Source: a virus
Lineage: Duplodnaviria; Caudoviricetes
Length of the DNA stretch: 64,000 bases
Strand: one strand, 5' to 3'
Virus record (IMG/VR): IMGVR_UViG_3300028591_000134
Coordinates: 37,233-101,232 of that record
Shown one piece after another: positions 24,950 to 26,890 of the stretch (positions are counted from its first letter, which is position 1; each line of letters opens with the position of its first letter). Under the pieces are notes generated by a model. That model saw nothing but the letters and a program-made list of their open reading frames with translations, did no database searches and had not been told where the DNA came from. The position numbers were made by a program, and so were the translations under genes.

Positions 24950-26890
24950 TCCTTTTTGATATCGTCCTTGATTGAACCAACGACATCATTGTTATTTACT
25001 ATGCACTTTTAGGCAGTGCGTTCTTAGCCTGTGAAGAAAAATTTGTGTTCTTGATTATTTGATACGGATACCAGATACTATGTAAGTTTCCTGTACTGTG
25101 CTGGTAGTCCTACCAGCCGCTTTTTACTCCCGCATTTTAGTATATACTGTAAAGACAATATATACAGGAATCCAACGGTAGGATTAGCTGAGCCATTCAA
25201 TACGGAGAATCCCATTCTTAAAGCTTTGAACGACAGTTTCCCATTCAAGGGATATAATCTTGAACAAAGTTTTATAAAATAAAACTGACTGGAGATGTTA
25301 GCCCCCAGGTGCTTTGCTCGTTGGCGGCATTTCATTACTGACTACCGTTCGTAGAGCCCAAAAAGACATGATTTCAATGTATTTTCCAGTTACAAAAGAA
25401 ATCACGGTGTATGTTTTCTGATTATTATTCAAGCCTAACAGCTAACATACAAAACGTGCTTGTTTCCTGTTTTCGACCAAATTAGATATTCTACGTGAGG
25501 AGTACGTTTCATTATCGGACAGTCTGTGAGCTCCAAAACTCATTCGACCCTACGGCTTTTTGTTGTGCATTCAGCTTTGCTGCTGTCTTCTGTTTATAGT
25601 GCGCGAATATGAGGAATTCAACCTATACATTATCTACTTTTGTCACCCACTTTACCTTCTTTTCACCATCGCGAGACAGGCGACAGCGCGGTCCTGCATA
25701 CGATTATATCACTGCGTCTAATCAGTTGGTAAAGCTGCCTTGTAAGTATTATTGTATTAGCTTCTACCTTTCGGGGTACATATAGATTTGCAGTCTATAC
25801 TTTATCCTGGTTAGCATCATAACGGTTGGCACTCGGTCTGACTCAATATAAAATGGCTACCTCTCCATCCCATACAACAGGTGGAAACGGCTTACTACTC
25901 CGCTTTTAGGGCGTAATATATCTATCAGGGGACCTCCAATTTTTTGTTAAACATGTTTACGATTCTCATTCCTATGGCTTACTTTATACTTTATCTTTAC
26001 GTACGCTCAAAGCTGTTTCCAATGCAGAGTTGAGTTTATTTAAAGTTTGTATTATCCTATCCATGTAAGGTAAGGCGGATCTCTTTCAGCACTGGAATAT
26101 GCTGTGTCGAATCGGCCGTATAATATTTGTGTGTCTGACTGTCAGGTAGTCACCCAAGGTACGTTTTGCGGAAAGTATTACAGATCGTCTACCATCTGTA
26201 AGAGACTGTCTACCATCAGACTTATGAACGCGGTCTCGTGGCGCTATATACTTGCATCGTATATCTGGTCATTTTGCTTTTATATCCCCGCACAAACGAC
26301 CAAAGCTAGGCGGGCACATGTACAAACGTATCTCAATATCATACCCCATCCCCGGACCCCTGGTGTGGGTCAGCAGAGGTTGTGGAATCGAACCACTAGG
26401 ACTCTCAGATATTACGTAGTTACGGTACGCATTCCAGTAGAATTCTGGCAATCAATGATACTCCATGTAATTTTCACCCCTTCATATACCGCTTGGAACG
26501 GTAGAACACTAGGCTAAGACTTACGAATAAAAGGAACCTTTTCCAGTATGCATCATGTTAGGGTTGGTGTCTAATATGTTTCAACTCGTGTCTCGTTATG
26601 CCATCTTTATGCATTCTCAAGATGGTTTGTCCGATACGGTGCGTTTCTCGGCATCGTCCGCTGACATGCTTCAGGCGTCTTCCTTACTAATACCCCACAC
26701 TTCTATGAGTCTGGCAAGAGCATAAAGGACTCTGCTGGTATGTATTAGTGTTAGGGTTGATACAACGCTCTCCCTAATACCAAGGAGCTTTTCACACTCA
26801 CGAGGTCTTCCACAGTAACTTTTGGATTTTTGTCTTTGGGACTCACCATATCTTCCTGTCAAGTAAATATGCAGACTAATGAGATCTGTT
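24950..26890 (-). ncRNA. Candidate very large structured non-coding RNA (one or two RNAs)
   Basis: ~1.95 kb with no credible ORF inside a dense operon; many hairpins, including a T-loop hairpin at 26382-26396. Confidence 0.55.

Follow-up and report, generated by a model that had tools for sequence, protein, structure and literature searches.

A gene-free gap of 1.95 kb, at positions 24940–26891 of the DNA analysed here, almost certainly encodes a conserved structured RNA on the minus strand, and this RNA is probably the representative of a new class of non-coding RNAs, very large and elaborately folded, that is, as far as seen, specific to Suoliviridae. The DNA is a window of 64,000 nucleotides (nt) from the IMG/VR virus record IMGVR_UViG_3300028591_000134 (positions 37,233 to 101,232 of that record), and the gap spans the interval between the stop codon of a gene for a protein of 166 residues (166 aa) and the ATG of a gene for a 211-aa protein. 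The whole structured region would comprise a candidate giant RNA and a structured leader for the gene that follows. By DNA and protein searches, the window belongs to a crAss-like phage of the Crassvirales, Suoliviridae, subfamily Oafivirinae, with cr272_1, cr273_1, cr130_1, cr131_1, cr7_1, cr124_1, Bohxovirus and Dulem virus 42 as relatives. The public sequencing runs that contain near-identical sequence originate from sheep and cattle gut. Suoliviridae correspond to the 'delta' group, the largest group of the human-gut crAss-virome (Yutin et al. 2021, PMC7886860).

An earlier note, written from the letters of this DNA, had described about 1.95 kb devoid of credible open reading frames (ORFs), a description that was borne out by the ORF lists, by three alternative genetic codes and by a comparison of reading frames in 19 lineages. 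The longest ORFs in the gap encode 137 aa (plus strand, 26104–26517) and 85 aa (minus strand, 25078–25335), and neither of them matched a Pfam or PHROG family. Stop codons are often reassigned in Suoliviridae; when the gap was re-read with TAG as Gln, TGA as Trp (table 4) or TAA as Gln, no long ORF appeared. In a comparison of 19 full-length related lineages, which included neither tBLASTx nor six-frame protein searches over the gap as a whole, no frame stays open throughout. About eight of the lineages share an open antisense frame of 100–200 codons at roughly the same location, which is broken in the others. Because no ORF, no alternative-code ORF and no frame kept across the 19 relatives were found, the gap is considered to be non-coding. 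ORFs are nevertheless annotated inside some homologous gaps: 13 short ones (31–112 aa) in the Dulem virus 42 record (L002:3175–5183), and a single antisense ORF of about 160 aa in both Bohxovirus (L003:3837–4343) and cr7_1 (L045:5104–5586). These are probably mis-annotations, their frames being unconserved across lineages.

In every Suoliviridae genome examined, a gene-free gap of 1.95–2.25 kb was found at the same syntenic place. It is preceded by the sigma factor gene, a gene for a protein of about 490 aa and one or two small genes in cr272_1, cr130_1, Bohxovirus, Dulem virus 42, cr7_1 and cr131_1, and likewise in Loutivirinae (cr60_1, 2.14 kb; cr4_1, 2.15 kb; cr52_1, 2.11 kb) and Boorivirinae (cr10_1, 2.08 kb). 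In Oafivirinae genera other than that of the window, nhmmer matches cover the full length of the gap. The Oafivirinae profile gave partial, colinear matches to the Loutivirinae gaps at the 5′ domain, the core and the 3′ part (E-values from 3e-13 to 1e-2) and a weak match to the Boorivirinae gap. Loutivirinae gaps are 72–79% identical between genera, which equals or exceeds the conservation of the neighbouring genes. Pairwise blastn comparisons returned colinear conserved islands along the entire gap, and a five-way alignment contained many invariant blocks. We then scored an alignment of 18 non-redundant lineages for identity to the window base in each column, in 40-nt bins. Identity was 0.45–0.7 inside the gap versus 0.07–0.37 in the flanking coding sequences, and the step coincides exactly with the stop codon of the 166-aa gene. 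Among relatives, the flanking 211-aa proteins share just 22–34% identity, and the two flank proteins tested (211-aa and 490-aa) have diverged much more than the RNA. Together, these comparisons of syntenic relatives show that the gap is conserved and colinear in about 29 distinct lineages.

The distribution of the element was examined with a DNA pattern made from two conserved RNA blocks, AGCCGTAG...CGATAANGAAACG. This pattern retrieved 40 loci from IMG/VR and 99 loci from metagenome contigs. The 40 IMG/VR loci are genuine, as are 79 of the metagenome loci, which a whole-region profile confirmed; 47 of the metagenome loci were full length. A scan of 185,579 species genomes yielded 13 matches, of which 12 were due to chance, and no true bacterial contig carried the pattern. 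The sole real match lies on contig CAVKNU010000327.1 (L055, 39 kb), which holds the 5′ 1.1 kb of the RNA and is binned in a metagenome-assembled genome labelled 'Lachnospiraceae bacterium'; we take it to be a mis-binned crAss-like phage contig, which therefore assigns no host. Among the phage records searched, Suoliviridae alone matched. No domain of the gap was found standing alone elsewhere, the bacterial pattern matches being chance ones.

In order to evaluate the structure of the putative RNA, the 18-lineage alignment was folded on the minus strand with RNAalifold. The consensus structure has 260 pairs and an energy of -278 kcal/mol. When a supported helix was defined as one with at least 3 base pairs (bp), at least 85% canonical pairs and at least 2 pairs in which both partners had changed, 27 supported helices with 100 covarying pairs were counted. 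Five column-shuffled controls gave -26 to -37 kcal/mol, 0–3 helices and 0–8 covarying pairs. Four sub-domains were further submitted to formal pair counting against 500 shuffles, and three of these also against slid partners. In the four sub-domains 86–99.6% of the cells were paired, and in each case none of the 500 shuffles reached as high a value. Covariation in relatives is thus strong and exceeds the shuffled controls by both approaches. The hairpins listed in the earlier note are all present, and most of them coincide with covarying helices, though on the single sequence they are not above chance. Those at 26197–26182, at 25252–25241 and in the 24988–24945 region covary in relatives, while that at 26601–26625 lies within a predicted helix that displays no compensatory changes.

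The structured parts, all on the minus strand, are described here from 5′ to 3′; conserved cores alternate with hairpins of variable length, and many of the domains are independently closed. The 5′-most hairpin (26872–26888, of the GGUC..CAUUAG..CC type) starts 4 nt past the upstream stop codon. Its stem covaries, being GGUC/GCC in Oafivirinae and GUGU/ACAC or AGAG/CUCU in Loutivirinae. It is followed by the 5′ domain helix (26809–26862), in which ACUUGA... pairs with ...UAGGAU around smaller hairpins; 99% of its pairs are canonical and 4 of the 6 covary. The helices of the 5′ domain show compensatory changes between Oafivirinae and Loutivirinae, and nhmmer detected this domain in Loutivirinae with E-values of 3e-13 to 8e-11.

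A large domain (26311–26588) is closed by a 6-bp long-range helix, 26588–26582 with 26316–26311 (91% canonical, 2 covarying pairs). It contains three hairpins between 26413 and 26514 (26514–26511/26479–26476, 26503–26499/26491–26487 and 26431–26426/26418–26413), which were tested in alignment A6 (26406–26524, plain MAFFT, 16 lineages). In this alignment 99.6% of the cells are paired, compared to 69.7% after shuffling (0/500) and 30–49% with slid partners; the covariation score is 0.894 versus 0.281 for the shuffles, and double changes occur in 11 of the 15 pairs. Within the same domain, 4 of the 5 pairs covary in the T-loop-like hairpin GUGG-UUCGAUU-CCAC (26381–26397) that the earlier note had listed. 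The 7-nt loops of the relatives (UUCGAUU, UUAGAUU and UGCAAAU) all keep U1 and A5.

The next domain (26212–26315) is compact and pseudoknotted. It comprises the helices P_a (26302–26290/26277–26266), P_c, P_d and P_e (26241–26239/26215–26213), and a variable hairpin between them whose stem differs in almost every lineage while its loop is conserved. The pseudoknot is formed by P_c (26245–26242/26232–26229), which crosses P_d (26236–26233/26221–26218); the crossing helices are of AGNN/NNCU (five pair types) and CGCG/CGCG composition. In alignment A3 (26212–26315, plain MAFFT, 24 lineages) 95.6% of the cells are paired versus 84.5% after shuffling (0/500) and 31–40% with slid partners. A long hairpin at 26071–26121 follows, with 9 of its 10 pairs covarying.

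The core domain (25598–25833) is closed by AGUGC/GCACU (25833–25829 with 25602–25598), a helix with double compensatory changes in two lineages (L023 and L014), and holds the most conserved block of the gap, GAGUGCCAACCGU. Plain MAFFT and RNAalifold gave almost nothing for these 250 nt, since lineage-specific insertions that reach about 90 nt disrupt the alignment. The core helices were read by eye on a local alignment and from the global fold. By this inspection (25840–25590), the loops CUGUCUC, UGGAAUU and AGCAAAG stay constant while the stems around them change in nearly every lineage. Next to the core lies a four-helix sub-domain (25488–25591) made of 25585–25582/25575–25572, 25554–25546/25524–25516, an inner hairpin and 25507–25504/25496–25493. 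Its covariance model R1 matched 30 loci with 44–101 bits. In alignment A5 (25488–25591) 92.9% of the cells are paired versus 73.6% after shuffling (0/500) and 24–36% with slid partners; this alignment was fitted to model R1 and is biased towards it, but the same pair types were present in the unfitted alignment. One A5 pair occurs as GC, CG, AU, UA and GU. Further 3′ lies a terminator-like hairpin (25308–25289) followed by a U-rich run (together 25275–25308). Two further features were not conserved: by-eye inspection of the conserved loops revealed no conserved self-complementary (kissing) loops or target complementarity, and a GGAGG at about 25935 is not kept in relatives.

The last ~330 nt of the gap contain a nearly invariant hairpin, AAUCC-UACCGUU-GGAUU (25166–25195; 98% canonical, 5 of 5 pairs with rare double changes), and then a structure over the start of the 211-aa gene (24945–24988). 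The outer 7-bp helix of this structure (24988–24982/24951–24945) pairs upstream sequence with the GGA of the Shine-Dalgarno sequence AAAGGA and with the spacer before the ATG, and encloses a small covarying hairpin (24977–24974/24966–24964) and a single-stranded A-rich stretch. In alignment A9 (24930–24995, plain MAFFT, 25 lineages) 86.2% of the cells are paired versus 60.9% after shuffling (0/500), and the core pairs show 3–5 pair types with zero unpaired cells. The 211-aa ORF is equipped with a conserved AAAAAGGA and an ATG of its own in each of the 25 aligned lineages. Translational operators and hairpins that sequester the Shine-Dalgarno sequence occur in phage mRNAs, and the 3′-most helix resembles them in that it pairs part of the Shine-Dalgarno sequence and spacer and covaries; the likeness is limited to the last ~45 nt of the gap. 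These ~45 nt resemble a translation or stability element belonging to the 211-aa gene, and we infer that the last ~330 nt are a structured leader of this gene whose final helix half-buries the ribosome-binding site.

Several helices point to the minus strand, the sense of all neighbouring genes, as the one that would be transcribed into the RNA. Consensus energies are -278 for the minus and -246 for the plus strand. At 26406–26524 there are 54 G.U pairs among 239 cells with one non-pair, and at several positions G.U is the main pair and alternates with G-C or A-U. In P_a of the 26212–26315 domain, two positions read GU:20/GC:2 and GU:17/GC:3/UA:2. On the plus strand such positions would be conserved A.C mismatches, which argues for the minus strand as the RNA. 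The strand call rests on particular helices; the global signal is mixed.

The RNA would most likely be made as a section of the early/middle transcript, which extends from the sigma-factor gene in the direction of the replication genes, because its first covarying helix begins so close to the upstream stop codon. This spacing leaves no room for a promoter and suggests that the RNA is transcribed either together with the preceding genes or from a promoter within the one directly before it. A conserved ACUUGA...AUAUG at the 5′ end was considered as a promoter and rejected, since this block forms one side of a covarying helix and no further copy of the motif was seen in the window. In many lineages a hairpin of terminator format, with a different stem and then UGUUUUA, stands at the place equivalent to 25275–25308. 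The terminator-like hairpin may form the 3′ end of an RNA of about 1.6 kb (26891 to ~25280), the final ~330 nt serving as the leader of the next gene. Contigs assembled from four metatranscriptome libraries, from four studies of sheep and cattle gut, contain the gap and the flanking genes alike.

By analogy with known large RNAs, the ~1.6-kb body could act as a stable trans-acting scaffold during takeover of the Bacteroidales host, working either as a ribonucleoprotein (RNP) together with proteins of the phage or the host, or as a higher-order assembly of RNA alone, as in GOLLD and ROOL, its nearest counterparts in kind. An RNP with the neighbouring proteins is as possible as an RNA-only assembly. 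As to mechanism, we tentatively rank a trans-acting role as scaffold or assembly first, and consider a single large RNA rather more probable than several.

A number of observations weigh against such a single, trans-acting minus-strand RNA. Its proposed function is drawn from analogy. The minimum free energy z-scores of the two halves of the window gap are +1.09 and -1.32, so that single-sequence folding does not go beyond shuffles, and a repeat search in the gap detected one inverted pair of at least 12 nt; the hairpins of the single sequence being unexceptional, the case for structure rests on the relatives and not on the window alone. Helices predicted on both strands give a G.U:A.C ratio of just 131:102, and sub-domain A5 one of 16:18. 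No promoter was found in the gap, where a sigma-70-type scan gave fewer sites than shuffles. The terminator-like hairpin is weak and was not detected in some lineages, e.g. the Bohxovirus cluster. The metatranscriptome contigs carry no information on strand, level or ends, and their depth sums contigs of related strains. When the model of the 490-aa neighbour was compared to the PDB, no fold match was obtained at E≤0.001, and a recognisable RNA-binding fold is absent from this protein. Finally, no well-supported helix joins the far 5′ and 3′ parts of the gap; the sole long-range candidates (26774–26772/25931–25929 and 25557–25555/25224–25222) consist of three invariant pairs each.

This last point leaves some room for a chain of separate or processed RNAs. 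The gap could be a tandem array of structured RNAs of a few hundred nt each, co-transcribed and then cut, or functionally independent, which we hold to be unlikely but the most serious of the alternatives. Such an array would account for the fact that the supported long-range helices close local domains of about 100–280 nt and that no covarying helix links distant parts. The variable, poorly conserved segment at ~26060–25970, the terminator-like hairpin at 25308–25289 and the last 330 nt, which behave as a leader of the next gene, would be in line with it, and relatives do have RAGATH-9, RAGATH-20 and permuted transfer-messenger RNA (tmRNA) nearby. It is opposed by the observation that the order, the total length of 1.95–2.25 kb and all the conserved blocks stay together in every lineage, that apart from ~25300 no internal promoter- or terminator-like site is seen, and that no domain was found alone elsewhere. 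The reading offered by the earlier note was a large structured RNA, or two of them, perhaps representing a new class. The structured RNA and its possible novelty are supported by conservation, covariation, the absence of a frame kept open in relatives and the lack of Rfam matches; its division into two units of ~0.9 kb is not. The AT-rich linker (25940–26050) that was thought to separate them has a GC content of 0.38–0.40, barely below that of the rest of the gap. It is a segment of variable length and poor conservation in which no terminator, promoter, internal duplication or direct repeats were found.

A purely cis-acting role is a still less probable explanation. Here the whole gap would be a long 3′ untranslated region and/or a 5′ leader that sets mRNA stability, attenuation or translation of the replication module. 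The gap is indeed co-oriented with both neighbours, its first helix abuts the upstream stop codon, a terminator-like hairpin stands ahead of the downstream genes, and the 3′-most helix, which covaries strongly, lies over the ribosome-binding site of the 211-aa gene. Nevertheless, we know of no bacterial or phage leader or attenuator that comes near the elaboration of this gap, in which 1.6 kb accommodate about 27 covarying helices, together with a pseudoknotted domain and single-stranded blocks that are invariant. Moreover, the conservation of the gap exceeds that of the genes it would regulate. A DNA-level element (an origin, packaging site or protein-binding array) or a decayed or intron-split gene is largely refuted and very improbable: the gap does lie just upstream of the replication module (DNA polymerase, DnaB-like helicase), and phages of this group often carry group I introns, which also occur elsewhere in the window, but the compensatory changes and strand-specific G.U pairs indicate selection at the RNA level, no repeat arrays or turn in GC skew were seen, no frame is conserved, no group I or II intron was matched in seven genomes, and the flanking ORFs have their own stop, Shine-Dalgarno sequence and ATG. 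The conserved RNA encoded on the minus strand remains our preferred interpretation, probably as one large molecule.

Comparison with known families supports its novelty. With Rfam 15, the gap gave no match at the gathering score, none at E≤10 across 24500–27300 and, for six divergent homologous loci, none at E≤1. Nearby transfer RNAs (tRNAs), group I introns, permuted tmRNA, RAGATH-9 and RAGATH-20 were, by contrast, detected by these searches. The families suggested by the earlier note (GOLLD, ROOL, OLE, RNase P and introns) are thus all without a match in the gap, from which it follows that the gap is not GOLLD, ROOL, OLE, RNase P, ribosomal RNA, tmRNA or an intron. Even at E≤10, models of small- and large-subunit ribosomal RNA (SSU, LSU) and RNase P gave no partial match in the gap. 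Other candidates were rejected individually. Group I and group II introns had no model match in the gap in seven genomes, and an intron within a split gene is incompatible with an upstream ORF that ends in TAA (26892–26894) and a downstream ORF with its own Shine-Dalgarno sequence and ATG. ARAGORN and Rfam found no tmRNA in the gap. A tmRNA-like closure was also discarded: its proposed 5′ acceptor strand (~26737–26730) falls in a window-specific segment that is absent from cr272_1, Bohxovirus and cr130_1. The T-loop-like hairpin as such is conserved.

Among known large RNAs, GOLLD is encoded in phages or prophages, often beside tRNA genes, and many of its members exceed 800 nt; GOLLD and ROOL form homo-oligomeric RNA-only nanocages of unknown purpose, as seen by cryo-electron microscopy, and the solved ROOL has 659 nt; OLE is a bacterial RNA that associates with Oap proteins (PMC12286853). 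The gap RNA resembles GOLLD as a phage-borne, very large, multi-domain non-coding RNA of unknown function that is defined by covariation and combines conserved cores with less conserved parts. Both have tRNA genes nearby (tRNA-Gln lies 1.3 kb downstream of the gap), a feature that is not family-specific. It differs from GOLLD in having no sequence or structure match to the Rfam model, in its size (~1.6–2.0 kb, where many GOLLD RNAs have >800 nt) and in its occurrence in crAss-like phages from guts rich in Bacteroidales, whose genomes carry it at a constant syntenic position within an early/middle gene block. With ROOL it has in common an ornate, pseudoknotted structure, an origin in phages or prophages, and the lack of a known function or protein partner; ROOL was first found in rumen, and the window comes from a ruminant gut. 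In contrast to ROOL, it has no Rfam model match, is 2.5–3 times longer and has an unrelated architecture. With OLE it shares large size and structure, and its 140-aa and 166-aa membrane-type neighbours loosely recall the membrane-bound OLE RNP. However, OLE is bacterial and not a phage RNA, the gap gave no Rfam match to it, and the link between the gap RNA and its neighbours is one of synteny only. The flank proteins tested match no Pfam or PHROG family, a search aimed at OapA, OapB and OapC not having been made.

No description of the gap RNA was found in the literature searched. Yutin et al. (2021) reported regions without recognisable proteins mainly in the Zeta group, with no mention of RNA (PMC7886860). 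An IMG/VR-wide screen for structured RNAs produced 8,495 candidates that average 67 nt, crAss phages being unmentioned (PMC10690425); short pieces of the gap RNA may be among them.

The gap lies in a block in which, from ~12.5 to 42 kb of the window, the minus strand carries every long ORF. The order on this strand is sigma factor, 140-aa, 490-aa and 166-aa proteins, the gap, 211-aa and 189-aa proteins, tRNA-Gln (23540–23611), two proteins, tRNA-Met (21862–21937), DNA polymerase (19948–21843) and DnaB-like helicase (18446–19369). The sigma factor (29480–30082) is of ECF type, with Pfam Sigma70_r2 and r4; for the other neighbour proteins tested, Pfam and PHROGs searches were empty. The 140-aa protein of the upstream block has two hydrophobic helices, and the 166-aa protein (26892–27392), which matched no Pfam family, has an N-terminal hydrophobic segment resembling a signal or anchor. 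The 490-aa protein (27526–28998) is without Pfam domain, as are its 80 metagenome homologues. Its AlphaFold model (pLDDT 70) is all-alpha; the N-terminal ~70 residues are disordered and Lys/Pro/Ala-rich, and the C-terminus is Lys-rich. For the 211-aa protein (24304–24939), which belongs to no Pfam or PHROG family, an ESM Atlas look-up returned nothing usable. When TAG is read as Gln, the 211-aa and 189-aa ORFs merge into one 402-aa frame (23731–24939, minus strand) with two TAG codons at the junction. In cr130_1, the annotated coding sequence homologous to the 166-aa gene (L004:5451–5948) contains two in-frame stops under table 11, and stop-codon reassignment seems to reach this early gene there.

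Other RNA features were recorded in the course of the analysis. Two group I introns above the Rfam gathering score lie at 31769–31971 and 33427–33673, both on the minus strand. Rfam further calls tRNA-like genes at 15960–16043 and 16230–16295 that ARAGORN does not report and that may be interrupted or unusual tRNAs, and ARAGORN calls a tRNA-Pro (anticodon AGG) at 52497–52585 on the plus strand which, with 89 nt, is long for a tRNA. In cr60_1 (L047:480–637, 1572–1673 and 1914–2235) and cr10_1 (L049:1164–1427), RAGATH-9, RAGATH-20 and permuted tmRNA precede the sigma-factor gene by a few kb. Non-coding RNAs abound in the early region of Suoliviridae.

RNAs as large and ornate as GOLLD, ROOL and OLE are rare; recent cryo-electron microscopy has revealed unexpected RNA-only cages among them (PMC12286853). 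The gap RNA is two to three times longer than GOLLD and ROOL and takes up about 2% of a genome of ~100 kb. It has been kept, with its base pairs, through a divergence that left neighbour proteins 22–34% identical. With hundreds of natural variants, of which 47 full-length copies came from one pattern scan, it constitutes a well-sampled target for structural work. It also corrects the annotation of these genomes: RefSeq crAss genomes leave the gap blank, and other records hold spurious small or antisense ORFs. One may speculate that a single ornate, particle-forming RNA of ~1.6–2 kb, RNA-only or assembled with syntenic proteins, is required for Suoliviridae infection; this bolder proposal, which we put forward with reserve, would make it the largest structured non-ribosomal RNA known in bacteria and their viruses, with an activity (scaffold, cage, decoy or ribozyme) that has no described counterpart. 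The gap, found in a very common family of gut phages, the Suoliviridae, adds a concrete new element to the early/middle programme of crAss phages.

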